64,000 nt of DNA. Origin: Neophaeotheca triangularis (taxonomy: Eukaryota). This document shows positions 2,557 through 10,756 of the stretch, one piece after another (the stretch's first letter is position 1; each line of letters opens with the position of its first letter). The stretch is from assembly GCA_054600435.1 (NCBI GenBank), contig BAAIJX010000006.1:620001-684000 (forward strand). The letters run 5' to 3'. Under the pieces are notes generated by a model. That model was not told where the DNA came from and ran no database searches. It was given only the letters and a program-made list of their open reading frames with translations. Both the position numbers and the translations under genes were made by a program.

Positions 2557-4543
2557 CTACCCTGCTATGCGCCATGCACGCATGGGTAATGTCTGCAGCT
2601 TGAGGGCTGCGGGCTTGATATAGCCCCAGAATGTCACGATGCCTATCAGCACGCAGATGATGTTGACGATGTAGTAGCCTAGGAATCAGTTAGAATACGT
2701 ATTTTGTACAGTTAGGCCCGGCTTCGTGAGCTTACCGTCTCGCTCTATCGTGCAAGTCCCTCCGCCATCTATGCAGCGGTGCTTCTCAGCTTCCAGCACG
2801 CAGGAGAAGGATTGCGTGATCAAGTCGCCTTTGAGCAGGCTTGTGTCTTTCGGTGGCGAGGAAGGAGGGAAGCAGGTTGCGACTGTGAAGGCATCGACGA
2901 ATTTAAGGATGAAGAAGCGTGGGAATGTGCCGCCCAGATTGGAGACGCTGGTTTTTGAGCGGTCAGTATCATACAGAGAACAGTGTAGTTGGTTCGGGGG
3001 AACTCACGTAGCCAAAAGCGTCATGTACGTGCCACCAATTAGTGGATCGGCAATCTTTGCGTGGAAGGCGGAGATCGCTACGAACATGACTGTCGACATG
3101 AAGGTCGAGAAGACGTGTTCCACAATCACAACAAGAAGATATGTTGTGGTCGTGCCGCCAGCTGGGAAGGACATGACCACTACTTGGGCAAAGGCTGCCG
3201 CTAAAAGCCTGCCCACAAAGGCCCAACACCAGACGGTGATCGGTTTATACTGCTCGCTCCATTTGCCGGCGTAGTATCCAAGACTGATCTCAAAGGGAAA
3301 GTCGATGAGTACGGTCAATGCGAGATCTTCCTGGCTGAAACCCTTGTCGAGGAGCTTGAGGTTGGTGACTGCATCGTTCGCTTGGAACCCGATCTTGGCG
3401 ATGAGGTGGATGATGATGAAGGTTTGAATATTCTTCAAGTTCAGGATACCGCCCATGGTCTTGTAGACATCCCAGATGCCGTCGCGTTCCTTGGTCTTCT
3501 CTTCCGTCTTCATAAGGGCCAACCCGAGGGTCACTGCGAGGTATGCCCAGCCCCAAAATGTGAGGTAAGAGTTGAGGGTCATAAGACCCTCCGCTTGAGG
3601 CGATGCGCGGAAATACTTGTTGGCAAAATCCGGGCTAGAAAGTGCAAGGAAGACCGTGTACGACAGAAATTGACCAGCGGTAAGCCCAACTGTCTGCGCG
3701 GTGGAAGCGTAGGAAAGGTTCGATGGTGACAGCAACGTCAGTGCCCAGCCATCCACGGCGATATCTTGTGTAGCACACATGAACACCAGAGCGAACCACC
3801 ATCCAGTGAAACCCCAGACACCCGCACCTCCATTCTCCCCCGCCTTGGCCATCATCTCTTGCGCCATGCTTCCCAGCCATATCATCCCAAACCCACTAAG
3901 CGTCTGTATCGGCAGAATCCAGCTCTTTCTCCTTCCCACCCTCGTACTCCACACAGCATCTACAATGGGACTCCATAGCAACTTCAAGCTGTACGGATAG
4001 CTCGCCAGGCTGTACACGCCAATCTGCCCATAACTGAGATAGCTCTTGAGCAAGAACGGCACACTTCCTCCCGCCAGACCCATAGGTATGCCCTGTAAGA
4101 AGTACAGCAACACCAGCAGCAAGAAATTCCGTCTGTCCTGTTCTGGCAGTTCGAAGAAACCTTTACTGCTCGCCTCTCCCTCCTTGGGCGCTGTCAAAGG
4201 CGGAGGCATATCCAAGCTGAAACTGCTACGTCCCATCAATCTTCCCGCGCGGACAGAAGAGTCCGCGGGTGTGTCCGCCGAGGCATGTTTGCCCGCTCGC
4301 TCGCGAAAGGAGCCATTCATGCTTCCTTCTGAGGCTGGCGAACCGTTGGTCTGCTGTCGGTTTCGCGGGTAGGGCGAGCGGGACTTGCTCTTGCGCATCG
4401 ACATGTGTAAAGGTCGGCTCTCGTCGTTGGATGGATCGAAATCGGAGTCGGAGGAGTAGGCGAAAGGGTCGTCTTGGCCGGTATTGGTGGTGTTGTCAAG
4501 GTCCGTGTCTAGAGTTAGTAGCTCGCCGCTGTCGCCTCTTCGT

Positions 4544-4578
<35 letters not shown>

Positions 4579-4794
4579 CTTGTTCTTGTTCTTGTGAGGG
4601 TCTTGACTGTTGTCGGTCTCGAAATCTTGCAGCTCGTGGATTTCTCCTTCACTCGCGCGTCGATCTACACGAGTATGCTGCTCCAGCTCTTCCCGACTTC
4701 TGGCTTGATGAGTGGGTAAGACGGGGGCGATGGAGCTTCCAGCGAGAGCGGGTGGCACACGAAAGTGGTTACTAGTAGGCAGAGAGTCGCCCAT
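2557..4794 (-). CDS. Acetyl-CoA transporter 1 (AT-1/SLC33A1 family, MFS)
   Basis: Motifs LLYFLQGIPMGL, YPYSLKLLWSPIVD, ATQDIAVDGWAL and GGTYMTLLAT|VSNLGGTFP. Two 3' introns (about 2949-3007 and about 2679-2735). Last exon ends RAWRIAG*. Confidence 0.9.
4543..4595. repeat. Coding (AAC)n/(AAGAAC)n microsatellite encoding a poly-Asn tract in the AT-1 N-terminus
   Basis: Tandem gtt repeats seen directly. Confidence 0.9.
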
Positions 4795-5306
4795 CCATGT
4801 GAAAAGAACGGGGGTGGGGGACGGGATGCTAGAACGATAACGATATTGTTGTTGCCCCTCACAAGATAGCCAGTCTAAAAGCGTAGTTAGTTACCAGCTA
4901 CCTCCTTAGCTACCAGTAGATGATGCCCCGTTGTCCTTTTGCCGCATCCGCCAACTTACTAGTACCTTTGAGGTAAGCTTTCATATGTAACGTTAACATG
5001 CAGGTACAGGACAGGACAGCTGGCTGATGAGAGATGACGGGATCATCAGGCTGGAAATGGAACAAGCCCCTTGATCACCGACGACATTCGACATTATTAT
5101 TATTCTTTACCTATTATTATGTACTCTTCTTAACGATCAACATTGCCGTCTTTACGATTGGTGTATTAGTAGTTACCACATATCACGGCCCGGACCCGTG
5201 ACGAACACACATGGCGACGCAGACAGGATCTGAATAGAGGCAACATCGCATCGCTCTCTATTTTATCATCTGCACACATGAATATGCCGCAATACAGATC
5301 ACCCAG

Positions 5307-6983
5307 TCACCCAGCAGCATAACCACTCTTCACCCTCAATCTCGCCCCATACTTCCACAACAAAAACGGCGCCGGAATCCCCAAAACCACTCCAGCAAAC
5401 CCTAACACACTATTCCCCCACCCATAACCCAAGGCATCGTACAAGCCGGGCGCGAACAAGGGAAAAGTAAATCCCCCCAACGATCGCAAAACCATCGTAG
5501 CCGCGATGCCACTCGCCGCGAAACGAGTATACGAGTCGACAATGTAAGTCTGACAGCACTGGAAGACCATCTGTTGGCCCGCGGCGAAGATGGCGGCGCC
5601 GATGTTCGGCACGACCCAGTGGGTGCGGTATTCGGCGCTCCAGCCGTAGAGGAACAGACCTATAGGTACGAGCGCTGTGCCGGGCATCATTAGAGGTACG
5701 CGGAATTCCGGGCGCCCTGTGTCTTGGTGTCTGGCTTTGAGCCGTTTGTAAACACGGTCGTTGATGTGAGCGGCTATTTGAGCGCCGAGGAAAAATCCCA
5801 CGCCGAGAGATATGTAGTTCAGCCCGCCTGTGCCGGCGTTTTGGTTGTAGACGGTTGTCCAGAGGACCGGAAAGGAGGCGAAGACGAGATAGAGAACGCC
5901 GTAGAGGTAGCCGATGTATAGGGCTAGAATCTGTACGATTGGTTGTGTGGAAATCATTATGAAGGGCCGGCTGAGCGCTATGCCTAGTGTTGAACGAAAG
6001 GTTCGGTTCGGGGTGTCGAATTCAGTGAACAAGTCTCGGTTTCCCGTTGCTTCGATGAGTTTATGCTTCTTTCGCTTCAAGATCTCGGGTGCATAGGTCT
6101 CTTTGAGGTAGAAGAGGCCAAAGGCTTGTATGACCATGGCAGCTATGCAAGTGCTCCAAAAGACCCAACGCCATGTGGTGTATTGAACAATGTAGCCCCC
6201 AGCAATTGGTCCAACGGCTGGGCCTAGCAGTGGCATGAGCGCGTAGTAGCCCATTGCTTTACCACGTTCCTGTGGCAGCCAGATATCTGCAATTACGCCG
6301 CCGCCGACACCAAGCGGTGCGCTTCCTCCTAGACCGGAGAGGAAGCGGAAGGCGATCAGTTGTCCTAGGTTTTGTGAAAAGCCGCACGCCAAGTTGAAAG
6401 CGAAATAGAACAGATTACTCAATTGGAAAATGATGCGGCGACCGAACAGCTCAGATAGAGGGCCTAGAAAGAGTGGTCCAAAGGCAAAGGCGAGGACAAA
6501 CGTACTCAGAGCGAGCTGTACGGTAGCATCACTGCCGATTTCAAAATCACTTTGAATTTGTTGTAGGCCTGGTGCGATCATAGAACTCGACACGGGCGAA
6601 ATGAACACAAACAGAGATACAACGCCCGTAACGGCCCATTTCTTCCTTTTCGACCAGTTCTTGGGATTCTGAGGGTCGTCAGCCCCGTCGAAGGTGACTA
6701 GGTTAGAATCTTTCTCTTTCTCGCGGTCGTTAGATGGTGACTTCTGAAGACCACTTGCTAAGGACGTTTCCACTTTCGGCTCGCCTGGTCCCTTTTCAAG
6801 GCTCGAATCCGTCCGGTTGTCGCGAATTTCCCGTGCCATGGGAGGTTCTCGTTCAGTCCCGGCATCACATCCCAGAATAGGTGTTTCAGTTTCCAGGCCA
6901 GTATTTACAGTCGGTTGAGAGCCTCCACTAGATGCTGTTCGCACGCTGGGAGTGATGGACTGTCTTCTCGGGGTCTCCACCAT
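5307..6983 (-). CDS. MFS drug:H+ antiporter (DHA1 family)
   Basis: Motifs DDPQNPKNW, GPLSELFGRR, FRFLSGLGGS and GRPEFR; about 12 TM segments; intronless. Start is uncertain (ORF extends to 7100). Confidence 0.9.
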   Translation of the reverse strand: MVETPRRQSITPSVRTASSGGSQPTVNTGLETETPILGCDAGTEREPPMAREIRDNRTDSSLEKGPGEPKVETSLASGLQKSPSNDREKEKDSNLVTFDGADDPQNPKNWSKRKKWAVTGVVSLFVFISPVSSSMIAPGLQQIQSDFEIGSDATVQLALSTFVLAFAFGPLFLGPLSELFGRRIIFQLSNLFYFAFNLACGFSQNLGQLIAFRFLSGLGGSAPLGVGGGVIADIWLPQERGKAMGYYALMPLLGPAVGPIAGGYIVQYTTWRWVFWSTCIAAMVIQAFGLFYLKETYAPEILKRKKHKLIEATGNRDLFTEFDTPNRTFRSTLGIALSRPFIMISTQPIVQILALYIGYLYGVLYLVFASFPVLWTTVYNQNAGTGGLNYISLGVGFFLGAQIAAHINDRVYKRLKARHQDTGRPEFRVPLMMPGTALVPIGLFLYGWSAEYRTHWVVPNIGAAIFAAGQQMVFQCCQTYIVDSYTRFAASGIAATMVLRSLGGFTFPLFAPGLYDALGYGWGNSVLGFAGVVLGIPAPFLLWKYGARLRVKSGYAAG

Positions 6984-7683
6984 GTTGGTCTCAAAAGGAA
7001 CCACGATCTGGGTCACTGTATGACGGACGTGGGAAACGATGGCAAGAGCGACCACCGCGATCAAGGCAGCTTGTATCAAATATAGACGGGAAGATAGCAT
7101 AGAAGAGGAAGTCCGCCTACCATACCATTAGTCGTGCCAATGTCTGTACTTACATCGTCCCAACAAACCGGAATGGCCGTGTCGACTGTCCGAGCAAGAC
7201 AGTACTTCTCGCAGCACGGCCAACCGTAAGCTAGTCGATCGAGGGATGCAAAGCATGGTTGACAACATTGGCAGTTAGGGAGAGGGTGGGGGTGGGGTGC
7301 CGGGGACATCGTACTACAAGGAATTATTGTCCGAGCGGGAAATCGTCCACGATCATCTACAGTCAAGGAAGGACCCTACCTCTAGAAAGTGTTAGACCCT
7401 CAATACTGACCATGGTCGATACGGTCTCTAGATGAAGAGCGATTGAAGTTCCAAGGTGCCCGATTTCCAAGGTTATAGTTGAAGCTGATGAGATGTTGAT
7501 GTGGTGACGTCCACGGGTCGCGCTTAGTAAAGCTTCCTGGTTGTGCTAACGTGGCTAACGCCGACGAGTCAATCTCAAACAATTCACAAAAAGACCAAAG
7601 AGCCTCAAAAATTTGCTTCCAAGGCCTTAAAGTGAGATAACCGACTCAATGGTAACTCAGATGGAGAAAAAGAAGCAGAAACC

Positions 7684-7699
7684 AAAAAGATGAACAAAA
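7684..7699 (-). terminator. Possible Pol III-type oligo-T terminator downstream of the tRNA-Pro gene
   Basis: T4 (7699-7696) and T5 (7688-7684) on the minus strand, 25-40 nt after the discriminator base. Confidence 0.4.
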
Positions 7700-7723
7700 G
7701 TAACTAGCTCTGGAGCTGAATTG

Positions 7724-7950
7724 GGGTCGGGCCGGGATTCGAACTGGGTTGGAGTTAGACATTGATAAGGTACGTTCCAGAATACATTTCATGCTTACCC
7801 CGGGGCCTCTCGCATTGATGCTCACATGGAATGTGAACCCGGACTCAGAGTGTACCCTAAGCGAGAATCATACCACTAGACCTGTGAAGCGGAAGTCAGT
7901 ACTGAGTCCGTTTGGGAGATGTTCCGCTCGGGGAGACATACCACTCGACC
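7724..7950 (-). tRNA. tRNA-Pro(AGG) gene in four exons (7950-7942, 7881-7855, 7814-7799, 7743-7724) with two spliceosomal-type introns (7941-7882, 7798-7744) and one canonical 37/38 intron (7854-7815)
   Basis: Joined exons give GGTCGAGTGGTCTAGTGGTATGATTCTCGCTTAGGGTGCGAGAGGCCCCGGGTTCGAATCCCGGCCCGACCC (72 nt). Acceptor stem GGTCGAG/CCCGACC, anticodon stem CTCGC/GCGAG, anticodon AGG, T stem CCGGG/CCCGG, T loop TTCGAAT. Confidence 0.9.
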
Positions 7951-8585
7951 ACATTTTCTGGACAACCCACTTGTGTGAGATGATGATGTAAGCGAAAAGC
8001 ATTACAAAATATATCAATACACATCAAAGTGAAGACGAGATAGCGTCGCTGCACGCCTAAGGCCCCGGCGTCAATAGAAACTGTTTTCGTCAGAAACCTC
8101 CCCGAGACTCTCTCTATCTTACTCGACTTGGAAGGATCGCCCTCTCCAAATTCAGAAAGTCTCACACTATAGTCGAAAAGCGTACGATGTAATTGATAAC
8201 TTTCCGACCGCGACCTTGCTAGATGGCCGACCCTACGCGCAGATTCTGCTAGCATTCTGGTGTTCTGTACAAGCCACAGGTCTGGGCATCACCTGTGGAA
8301 AACATGCTCCTCGGCGTCCAAACAGGAGGATCTTGTAGGGACGACAGTGATCGAGGTGTGCGGTTGAGTCACCCTGCGCCGCTATCTTATAATGCGCAGG
8401 GAAGTATTACGATTGAATGGCCACTGCAGTACTGGGTCTTTGAAAGAACTACTAGATGGTGTTCGAGCATCGCAGAGGGAAAAGGTGTCTAGCCTCAACG
8501 TGACGACCCTTACACTACCCTGATTTTGCTGGCCATTGTTGTCGTAGCTCAATTGCACTGTCTCTTCATTTTGGCCACTTCCCGA

Positions 8586-10373
8586 TCACCCCGCAACCAC
8601 CTCCTCAACATTCTTCCCAGCGAGCTCCCGCATCTCCGCCACGATATCTTTACTTTCCTGCCCCGACTTCAAGAGCTCCTTCCACCCCTCAAGCTTCTTG
8701 ACCGCCTCAGAGTGCCCTCCCACGGCAGCATACAGCTTGATCATCCTCGTCGTATCCTTCCCAGAACTCATGTACAACCCATCCGTCTCCCTCGCAAGCA
8801 ACACCCAAATCAGATTCTGCAAGACGTCCGAACCTCGCTTCATCTTCCGCAAGACCTGCAGACGTTGCTCGAGAAGCCGGTTTTTCGTCTGTGCAAGCGT
8901 ATCGGAGCTCGGGGCTTCCACCTTAAGCTTCTTCGCGCACTTCTGCACAGACATCAAGATCGATGACAGTGTCTTCGCTTCGTCGCAAGCTTGCGACATC
9001 TTGTCGACCTCCCTTGCTCGCGTCTTGTCCTTGAGTAAACCTTCGTTTTTGGCGGTTTTCAGAATCTCAGGTAAGTATTCCCGGCGGAAGTAGTCGCCAA
9101 TAAATTCTTCGAGATGCTGCTTCAGAGTGGAATCCGATGCTGTTGCCACGCCACGGGCATATGCCTCGACGGGGCTGATGATTTTCTCGTGGAAAAAGGT
9201 GATGAAGCGGAGACGGTCCTCCTCGGCAAGGTCCTGAATGCGGGAGTCGAAGGTTTGGGATATTCCCTGGCGGTAGCTTGTATCGAGGAGTAGCCTGTAA
9301 AGCTCGATGTCGGCCTCCTCTGCAGCAAGCGTTTCTACCTCCTTTCCGGCTCGGTGGTCAAAAGACGGCACTGGGGCCCCGCGTTCGCGTGCAGTCCAGG
9401 CATTCAACGCTGACTTTGACATCAGAGATTCGAGTTCTGTTATCGCAGCTTCAATGGCACTCTTTTGGGCAAGTAGAGTTGATTCGCCGCTCGAGATCGA
9501 TTCGACGTCGACTTCGAGGGCCTGTATTTCTTCAATCAAGTCTTGGACAGTCTTGTCCGCATCTTCTAATTTCTTCGAGTACGTGCTAGGCTCAATCGCA
9601 ACGTATCCCTGAGACTGCAGTTTCGAAGTAAGATCGTTCACCAGTGAATTGTACGTCTCGATTCGGTCAGCTCGTTGCGCGTGAGCGTACGCAGATGGCG
9701 TGAAAGTGACAACGCCATTGATCTGGTCTATAGCGCCCTCCAGAGTTTCGTCCCTAGCGAGCAAGTCCTTCGCCATCTTTGCAATCTTCGATGAAGAAAG
9801 ACCCCTGTTAAAGCGATCAAGCTCGCACCGCTGGTCGTTAGCATTCCGCATAGCATTCGCTATATCATCCTGAACTCGACCATGAAGATTCTTCTGGCAG
9901 ACATGCTTCTTGCTGCCGTCTGTCTGCACATCCATCAACTCCCTGCCTTGCGCTCTCCAGGCTTCGGTAAGGCTATCCAAGGAAACAATGTCGATATCCT
10001 TCTTGGTAGCGAACTGCTCAAGGTCGACCACTCGGTCTCCAGCGACAGTCCAAAGTTCATCGAAGATCTCTTCCGCCAAAGCGGAAGGTATGATTTGGTC
10101 GTTCCTGGCATAATTGAAGTAAATCGGACACGACACCAAGCCCAGGAGACGGTCAGCGCCTTGAACGCCAAGTTCATGGTCAAGCTCTCGAATACTAAGG
10201 CGGTTTGAATTCTCTGCTAATCGTTTCTCTAGGCGTCCCACGATGGCTCCAGACTGTACCAAGTGTTCGCCAGAGAAGCTACGTAAAAGTGTCGGCTTTT
10301 CTTTGGTAAGAGACGGTGGAGGGAAAGTTTGGAGCAGCGCAGCGACATCTTCATCCGTCCAGATGAGCGCCAT
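8586..10373 (-). CDS. Hypothetical helical protein, possibly a divergent UFL1 (E3 UFM1 ligase)-like protein
   Basis: 595-aa intronless ORF with natural composition. The UFL1 resemblance is by eye only. Confidence 0.75.
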   Translation of the reverse strand: MALIWTDEDVAALLQTFPPPSLTKEKPTLLRSFSGEHLVQSGAIVGRLEKRLAENSNRLSIRELDHELGVQGADRLLGLVSCPIYFNYARNDQIIPSALAEEIFDELWTVAGDRVVDLEQFATKKDIDIVSLDSLTEAWRAQGRELMDVQTDGSKKHVCQKNLHGRVQDDIANAMRNANDQRCELDRFNRGLSSSKIAKMAKDLLARDETLEGAIDQINGVVTFTPSAYAHAQRADRIETYNSLVNDLTSKLQSQGYVAIEPSTYSKKLEDADKTVQDLIEEIQALEVDVESISSGESTLLAQKSAIEAAITELESLMSKSALNAWTARERGAPVPSFDHRAGKEVETLAAEEADIELYRLLLDTSYRQGISQTFDSRIQDLAEEDRLRFITFFHEKIISPVEAYARGVATASDSTLKQHLEEFIGDYFRREYLPEILKTAKNEGLLKDKTRAREVDKMSQACDEAKTLSSILMSVQKCAKKLKVEAPSSDTLAQTKNRLLEQRLQVLRKMKRGSDVLQNLIWVLLARETDGLYMSSGKDTTRMIKLYAAVGGHSEAVKKLEGWKELLKSGQESKDIVAEMRELAGKNVEEVVAG

Positions 10374-10756
10374 CTTTGCAGCTTATAAGCCAGAGAAGTA
10401 GGAAGTCAGCTCTTTGATTCGTAGATGTGGCAAGCAAATTCCGTAAGAGCTCAAGTTGATAAGAGGCGAGCGGAAATGAGATCGGGATTCTTGTGAGGGT
10501 AAAACAATGCTGTAATTTTCGTCTTACAGCCGATCCTTGTCTCCTAGGTGCTTGCTCATGGGTGTAGGTTGTATCAAAGGAAGTGTCGGGCAGTAGCCAA
10601 AAGTTCGGATGAAGTCTCAAGGCTTTGGTCTTGGCCCCCACGCTCGGATCTTGACTTCATGGAGGTTGCTGCTGCACGTACGAACATCCACATCGACGAA
10701 TCATTCCACTACATACCTCCATAAGCCCTTCTCACACGTCTCCTCCTTCGCCCAGA

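Follow-up and report, generated by a model that had tools for sequence, protein, structure and literature searches.

A proline tRNA gene interrupted by two spliceosomal-type introns and a canonical tRNA intron in a Dothideomycete fungus

A stretch of 64,000 nucleotides (nt) from Neophaeotheca triangularis (GenBank assembly GCA_054600435.1, contig BAAIJX010000006.1, positions 620,001 to 684,000; hereafter the window, with positions counted from its first letter) carries on its minus strand, at 7950-7724, a gene for tRNA-Pro(AGG) that is split into four exons of 9, 27, 16, and 20 nt by three inserts. The outer two, in the D arm and the T loop, resemble the introns of messenger RNA precursors, and the middle one sits at the canonical tRNA intron site in the anticodon loop. 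We consider it likely, with a probability of roughly 0.75, that this is a working nuclear gene, the D-arm and T-loop inserts of which would be removed by the spliceosome and the anticodon-loop intron by the tRNA-splicing endonuclease TSEN. Maturation through both machines had been proposed in an earlier reading of the same DNA, made from its letters without database searches (the sequence-only reading); it is supported, at the level of sequence, by an architecture shared with other organisms, by conserved exons and splicing signals, and by compensatory changes in the tRNA stems.

Anatomy of the interrupted gene

All exons and inserts lie on the minus strand, and the coordinates, lengths, and boundary motifs that the sequence-only reading gave for them are all present in the sequence. 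Exon 1 (7942-7950; 9 nt) comprises tRNA positions 1-9, that is, the 5′ strand of the acceptor stem together with U8 and G9, and pairs with 7725-7731 in the ARAGORN cloverleaf. It is followed, between positions 9 and 10, by intron 1 (7882-7941; 60 nt), an insert of mRNA type that runs GTATGT..TACTGAC..CACAG and has its branch A 14 nt from the 3′ end. Exon 2 (7855-7881; 27 nt; positions 10-37) supplies the D arm and the 5′ half of the anticodon arm, including the anticodon AGG. The middle insert (7815-7854; 40 nt) separates positions 37 and 38 and is called as a tRNA intron by ARAGORN, the register of which, 7853-7814, is equally valid because a T stands on both sides of the insert. Exon 3 (7799-7814; 16 nt; positions 38-53) holds the 3′ half of the anticodon stem, the variable loop, and the 5′ strand of the T stem. 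A second insert of mRNA type, intron 3 (7744-7798; 55 nt; GTAAGC..GTCTAAC..CCCAG, with the branch A 11 nt from the 3′ end), then separates positions 53 and 54, and exon 4 (7724-7743; 20 nt; positions 54-73) completes the gene with the T loop, the 3′ strands of the T and acceptor stems, and the discriminator C.

Once both outer inserts are cut out in silico, ARAGORN recognizes a tRNA-Pro(agg) interrupted at 37/38 by an intron of 40 nt; cutting out the middle insert as well yields a call of tRNA-Pro(agg) with 72 nt, which bears out the intact 72-nt cloverleaf that had been described. Standard pairs occupy 19 of the 21 stem positions, the exceptions being T13:T22, which is common to the related genes described below, and A6:C67. 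In its genomic form, by contrast, the gene escapes detection. ARAGORN makes no tRNA call anywhere in the 64-kb window; Rfam reports no family in the window at its gathering score and no match to the tRNA model (RF00005) at E ≤ 10 on 7650-8020, nor does it report a tRNA match at E ≤ 1 in the loci of two related genes, L004 and L005. A miss of the genomic form by a covariance model is expected, because the gene is interrupted. The earlier suspicion that standard tRNA finders would overlook such genes thus holds for ARAGORN in the window and for Rfam in the window, L004, and L005.

A tRNA assembled from pieces could in principle arise from a liberal choice of segments to remove. In a deletion scan over both strands of the whole window, each GT..AG segment that was 35-160 nt long and had a loosely matched donor together with a YTRAY motif close to its end was excised, and ARAGORN was run after each edit. 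Across 7130 single edits and 54031 edits of nearby pairs, a good tRNA emerged only from this locus, and exactly with the two segments singled out by the sequence-only reading. Because the scan yields a good tRNA here alone, the split-tRNA call is not a product of chance. A second call of the scan, a tRNA-Leu(gag) at 30897-30681 on the minus strand, was rejected as a false positive, its insert being a 126-nt GT..AG segment without consensus signals and its stems containing several mismatches. By a rough estimate, a donor, branch site, and acceptor in the observed geometry would be expected by chance in about 4e-6 of single random inserts, and in about 1e-11 of cases for two.

The signals of the outer inserts are those of U2-type introns. 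A 5′ splice site of the form GTRNGY stands at the first base of every one: GTATGT and GTAAGC for introns 1 and 3 of the window, GTTAGT and GTAAGT for those of L004, and GTAAGT in both cases for L005. Near a YAG acceptor, each also has a branch site containing CTRAY. In the window these are TACTGAC and GTCTAAC, at 14 and 11 nt, respectively, in inserts ending in CAG, and in L004 and L005 they are TACTAAC (intron 1) and AACTGAC (intron 3), again with CAG acceptors. The mRNA introns of the window itself were represented by a heuristic set of 18 candidates that bridge open reading frames (ORFs), assembled without a check by protein alignment. Many of these are 44-77 nt long, have the form GTRNGN..CTRAY..YAG, and place the branch A 7-19 nt from the acceptor. 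The outer inserts, at 60 and 55 nt with branch distances of 14 and 11 nt, fall within this range, and the resemblance in signals and length to the window's mRNA introns, claimed earlier, agrees with this heuristic set. Neither insert of the window folds unusually (z-scores of -0.40 for intron 1 and +0.82 for intron 3). In L004, as a separate observation, the donor region of intron 1 (L004:1450-1502), GUUAGUAA, pairs with its branch-site region, UUACUAAC, in a hairpin with a z-score of -4.0 (0 of 200 shuffles were as stable), which is only partly kept in L005.

The middle insert is of a different and familiar kind. Pairing between the anticodon loop and an intron at this site is ordinary in eukaryotic tRNA precursors, and the minimum free energy folds of the window and L004 precursors, computed with the outer inserts removed, recover it: the anticodon-arm segment GCUUAGGG pairs with the intron segment CUCUGAGU, and the acceptor and T arms form. 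Because its predicted pairing is this ordinary anticodon-intron helix, the middle insert is, as modeled, a canonical TSEN substrate. It matches the canonical eukaryotic 37/38 intron in position, in length (21-40 nt across the organisms compared), and in pairing, with no point of difference, whereas neither outer insert is of that kind. Its first 14 nt are identical at 12 of 14 positions between the window and L004.

Two further observations concern this intron. In both lineages it holds a motif resembling a B box with 2 mismatches (window ~7829-7839; L004:1539-1549), 37-46 nt past the A box; the motif recalls the intron-borne B box of fission-yeast U6, and it is suggestive only, because the background is 2.45 such matches per kb per strand. 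Between L004 and L005, moreover, the intron is identical at 21 of 21 positions, above what anticodon pairing alone would need.

The same architecture in two further organisms

The same architecture was recovered in two further organisms. Metagenomes were scanned with a pattern consisting of exon 2 with AG directly before it, in place of the universal U8-G9, which a normal tRNA-Pro should not match. Five loci matched, three of which (L002, L004, and L005) share the architecture of the window gene. They represent two organisms: L002 and L004, from two metagenomes, are the same over 3 kb, and L005 belongs to a relative of the L002/L004 organism. The same pattern had 0 matches in a collection of genome contigs and 0 in viral contigs. 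In L002/L004 and in L005, the gene consists of a 9-nt exon 1, a 53-nt insert at 9/10 (GTTAGT or GTAAGT..TACTAAC..CAG), exon 2, a 21-nt intron at 37/38, exon 3, an insert of 53-54 nt (GTAAGT..AACTGAC..CAG), and exon 4. Exon 2 is identical in the window, L004, and L005, and the spliced forms of L004 and L005 are called tRNA-Pro(agg) by ARAGORN, with standard pairs at 20 of 21 stem positions.

The manner in which L004 and L005 have diverged from one another is informative. Their exons are identical at 72 of 72 positions and their tRNA introns at 21 of 21, compared with 76 of 107 for the mRNA-type inserts (Fisher p = 4.6e-10); in the flanks of about 150 nt, 126 of 151 positions are identical upstream and 104 of 162 downstream. 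Of the 32 insert columns occupied by splice signals (donor hexamer, branch heptamer, and acceptor triplet), 31 are identical, as against 45 of 75 elsewhere in the inserts (p = 4.6e-5). As read from these alignments, the pattern is that of exons and splice signals under selection, with intron interiors free to vary, and it is not one expected of a dead gene.

The more distant comparison, between the window and L004, adds evidence from the tRNA stems. Eight of the 72 mature positions differ, three of them in loops. At pairs 5:68 and 52:62, a G-C of the window corresponds to a T-A in L004 and L005, amounting to two compensatory changes across the two lineages compared; at pair 6:67, the window has A:C where L004 has G-C. 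By blastn, the L004 and L005 loci match the window over only 42 nt, which extend from the bases immediately ahead of exon 2, through that exon, into the beginning of the tRNA intron, and tblastx finds nothing. Because the loci share nothing else with the window, either the lineages are not close or the gene lies at different places in them.

Upstream of the gene, L004:638-1355 forms a mosaic with L005: about 715 nt are 95-100% identical, and starting some 85 nt ahead of exon 1 the identity falls to 52-79%. This block has no Pfam or Rfam match, and could be a recently shared element or a constrained feature of some other nature. An exhaustive search with an ORF of 130 amino acids from these loci gave 3 hits. 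The remaining two loci recovered by the scan do not have the architecture of the window gene. L001 (265-345) is an uninterrupted tRNA-Pro(TGG) in a contig of 30% GC content, and has an A at position 8 in place of the near-universal U and an A:G mismatch in the acceptor stem. L003 (1100-1250), in a contig of 36% GC content, is a copy of tRNA-Pro(AGG) that lacks the first 9 nt, with no 5′ exon found upstream; a second partial tRNA-like fragment lies about 60 nt upstream of it. The locus is probably either a copy cut short or a repeat of tRNA origin.

Transcription signals and alternative explanations

The interpretation that we favor may be stated as a sequence of steps. The precursor, in this Dothideomycete, would carry three introns of two kinds. 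The 60-nt insert at 9/10 and the 55-nt insert at 53/54 would be U2-type GT-AG introns, with a fungal donor, a CTRAC branch site, and a YAG acceptor, and would be excised by the spliceosome; the 40-nt insert at 37/38 would pair with the anticodon loop and be excised by TSEN, with a ligase then joining the halves. The spliceosomal introns would presumably leave first, since folding of the acceptor, D, and T arms is impossible with them in place, and RNase P, RNase Z, and TSEN recognize the folded body.

Candidate signals for transcription surround the gene in all three organisms. An AT-rich, TATA-like element, TATATTTT, lies at 8006-8013 on the minus strand, about 56-63 nt upstream of exon 1; L004 has TATATAA at -57 and L005 TATATAT at -58, and the element may be part of a promoter. 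Downstream, on the same strand at 7684-7699, the window has T-runs that are candidate terminators for RNA polymerase III (Pol III), TTTT at +25 and TTTTT at +36. The genes of the relatives are followed by T5 at +4 and T7 at +13 (L004) and by T6 at +14 (L005), such that a run of at least five Ts occurs within 36 nt 3′ of all three genes, and none of T5 or more occurs inside any of them. For the internal promoter, the A-box and B-box consensus motifs were supplied from general knowledge rather than derived with a tool. A perfect match to an A-box-type motif (TRGYNNARTGG) at 7941-7951, on the minus strand, spans position -1, exon 1, and the first base of intron 1. The two strands of the window (128 kb) together hold 3 perfect matches, this one included, and the equivalent site in L004 and L005 has more than 1 mismatch; we regard it as a weak lead. 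As a side observation on the same part of the molecule, mature positions 2-9 and 10-18 of the window tRNA form a tandem repeat matching at 7 of 8 positions, which is largely a family trait, because an uninterrupted tRNA-Pro of another organism already matches at 6 of 8.

The genes on either side lie on the same strand as the tRNA gene: a DLH-like ORF that ends at 8586 and an MFS transporter ORF at 7127-5307 (first Met near 6986, counted from the translation). For an acetyl-CoA-transporter ORF on the minus strand at 3004-4890, the closest matches that bear a name, at 70-72% identity, come from Meristemomyces, Oleoguttula, Hortaea, Saxophila, and Vermiconidia, of which Meristemomyces and Hortaea belong to the Teratosphaeriaceae (Mycosphaerellales, Dothideomycetes). 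The host of the window is accordingly a relative of these black fungi, a Teratosphaeriaceae-like Dothideomycete. Public sequencing runs were searched with 5300-10400, and two marine metatranscriptomes contained 0.09 and 0.07 of the query words, with pieces of high identity on both neighboring genes. The only piece on the tRNA locus covers 31 nt of exon 2 and continues on both sides into an uninterrupted tRNA-Pro of another organism; it counts neither for nor against the proposed splicing.

Several observations weigh against a working gene matured in the manner proposed. The A6:C67 mismatch in the acceptor stem is present only in the window copy, and L004 and L005 are without it. Intron 3 stands at 53/54 in the window (7744-7798) and at 54/55 in L004 (1568-1620) and L005 (reverse complement 917-970), and no alternative GT-AG register removes the difference. 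Because of this offset, strict homology of intron 3 is not certain; a shift of the intron by one base, or separate gains at neighboring sites, would account for it. The comparison as a whole rests on two lineages, one of them represented by two organisms. If the gene is transcribed by Pol III, further difficulties follow. Intron 1 displaces the true A box, at exon 2 (1 mismatch when the DNA is read), to a place 62-69 nt past the gene's first base. Intron 3 splits the B box, which departs from the consensus by 1 mismatch in the window and by more than 2 in L004 and L005, and a T4 run falls within intron 1 of both L004 and L005.

Among the alternatives, one is a variant contained within our preferred interpretation: the tRNA could lie inside a transcript of RNA polymerase II (Pol II), either its own or the untranslated region of a neighbor, be spliced co-transcriptionally, and be released by RNase P and RNase Z. 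We regard this as possible but on the unlikely side. Efficient splicing is normally coupled to Pol II, and such an origin would suit the displaced A box and split B box, the TATA-like element at a similar distance upstream in all three loci, and the shared strand of both neighbors in the window. It accords less well with the T-runs of at least five close behind the gene in all three organisms, which are placed as at Pol III terminators. It also lacks a conserved host gene, because L004 shares no neighbor gene with the window and has no Pfam-recognizable ORF within 1.4 kb on either side of its tRNA gene (Pfam was run on 8 ORFs of the L004 and L005 loci). Further, U6 of fission yeast, as described in the accessible text of PMC5855946, shows that a Pol III transcript can be spliced. 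It is because of this precedent, and of the T-run that follows the gene in all three organisms, that we lean modestly toward Pol III as the polymerase suggested by the sequences.

It is improbable, in our estimation, that the locus is a dead copy, a tRNA-Pro gene broken by two intron-like insertions while the cell relies on other, uninterrupted Pro(AGG) genes. The acceptor mismatch of the window and the displaced or split promoter boxes would fit such a history. A dead copy, however, would not be expected to keep 93 of 93 positions of exons and tRNA intron identical between L004 and L005 amid inserts and flanks that are 64-83% identical, to preserve splice signals at 31 of 32 positions against 45 of 75 for the rest of the inserts, or to acquire two compensatory stem changes between the window and L004. 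Nor would it readily explain two inserts with the correct signal geometry, for which the rough chance figure is ~1e-11, and their repetition in two other organisms.

Very unlikely indeed is the possibility that the gene is functional and that its outer inserts are ectopic tRNA introns, cut by the tRNA endonuclease at structures resembling the bulge-helix-bulge (BHB) motif, as in Cyanidioschyzon merolae, nucleomorphs, and archaea. The tRNA-Ile(UAU) of C. merolae does have three introns in the same three arms (accessible text of PMC9602550 and PMC3978253), and intron 1 of L004 and L005 can form a central helix of 4 out of 4 pairs in one register. No consistent motif emerges, however. In a test that had no working positive control (the canonical intron itself reached 2-3 of 4), the central helix of intron 3 stopped at 2 of 4 pairs in each of the three organisms and that of the window's intron 1 came to 3 of 4, and 4 of 4 pairs were attained by 2572 of 20000 random site pairs (13%). 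What is conserved at the outer inserts is GTRAGT, CTRAC, and YAG, and not the pairing of their boundaries. An origin as introners or transposons was rejected, since no further copy of any insert occurs in the 64-kb window or the related loci (old, degenerated elements could escape a search of one window), their length is ordinary, and the folds in the window are not unusual; at the insert boundaries in the window, no target-site duplication beyond an ambiguity of 1-2 nt and no terminal inverted repeats were seen.

Relation to known systems and significance

Spliceosomal introns in non-coding RNA genes are a known phenomenon, and the gene described here is of this kind, newly in a tRNA and combined with a TSEN-type intron. 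The nearest parallels are the introns of fungal small nuclear RNA (snRNA) genes, namely U6 of Schizosaccharomyces pombe, which is made by Pol III (Tani and Ohshima 1989), and U1, U2, U5, and U6 of Rhodotorula hasegawae (both in the accessible text of PMC5855946). In these, as here, a GT-AG intron interrupts a small and highly structured fungal non-coding RNA gene, and U6, like tRNAs, is a Pol III product. The host in the present case is instead a tRNA, which stands outside the spliceosome, and it carries two such introns and a TSEN-type intron within a single 72-nt RNA. Because a tRNA is not part of the spliceosome, the usual rationale for intron gain in snRNAs, that of reverse splicing into RNA at the catalytic center, does not apply. 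A second parallel is found in the spliceosomal introns of ascomycete ribosomal DNA (Bhattacharya et al. 2000, as cited in PMC5855946), which also interrupt ascomycete non-coding RNA genes that are not transcribed by Pol II; there the host is rRNA, made by Pol I, and the molecule is not subject to a second splicing system.

The three-intron tRNA of C. merolae provides the closest likeness among tRNAs, with three introns in the same three arms and a gene missed by standard finders. Its introns are of BHB type and removed by endonuclease (accessible text of PMC9602550 and PMC3978253), whereas the outer two here have a donor, a branch site, and an acceptor and lack a consistent BHB. With respect to the origin of the inserts, introner-like elements are also of interest: the six species that carry them are Dothideomycetes, so that the host of the window belongs to a class of fungi with recent intron gain. 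The present inserts differ from these elements, which are multi-copy, longer than regular introns, and stably folded (accessible text of PMC3609843), in being single-copy in the window and loci, of ordinary length, and without an unusual fold in the window.

In work of Koehrer, Vogel, and Domdey (EMBO J, 1990), a pre-mRNA intron built into a yeast tRNA precursor was reportedly removed through the pre-mRNA pathway. Such a construct would establish that the spliceosome is able to process a Pol III tRNA precursor, but it is artificial and not a natural, conserved gene. Our literature search, which did not extend to subscription-only papers or supplements, recovered no description of spliceosomal-type introns in tRNA genes, and the exact phrase "spliceosomal introns in tRNA" occurred in 0 papers. 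U1, U2, U5, U6, and rRNA are the non-coding RNAs that the U6 review names as carrying spliceosomal introns, and its accessible text does not include tRNA (PMC5855946). A review of tRNA processing from 2023 names the spliceosome once in its accessible text, as a contrast (PMC10275265). It is possible that these are the first natural spliceosome-dependent tRNA genes. Their precursor would be made by Pol III and pass through two splicing events at the spliceosome and one with TSEN, and selection would have preserved the arrangement in two or more fungal lineages. We offer this composite proposal tentatively, and put its chances at somewhat less than even.

The cited literature treats tRNA splicing and the spliceosome as separate systems. 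A conserved tRNA that needs both machines would join the list of spliceosomal-intron hosts, and would serve as a natural test case for the splicing of a probable Pol III transcript. It would also constrain models of intron gain, since the host has neither a reading frame nor proximity to the catalytic center. The failure of ARAGORN and Rfam to recover any of the three genes exposes a blind spot of tRNA finders, and, if the composite proposal is correct, some isoacceptors that seem absent from fungal genome annotations may instead reside in split genes of this type. A direct test is possible with RNA from any fungus that carries the gene. Should that proposal hold, the spliceosome would routinely act on tRNA precursors in such fungi, and tRNA genes would be able to gain introns of mRNA type, for example by reverse splicing into an abundant tRNA followed by reverse transcription and gene conversion.

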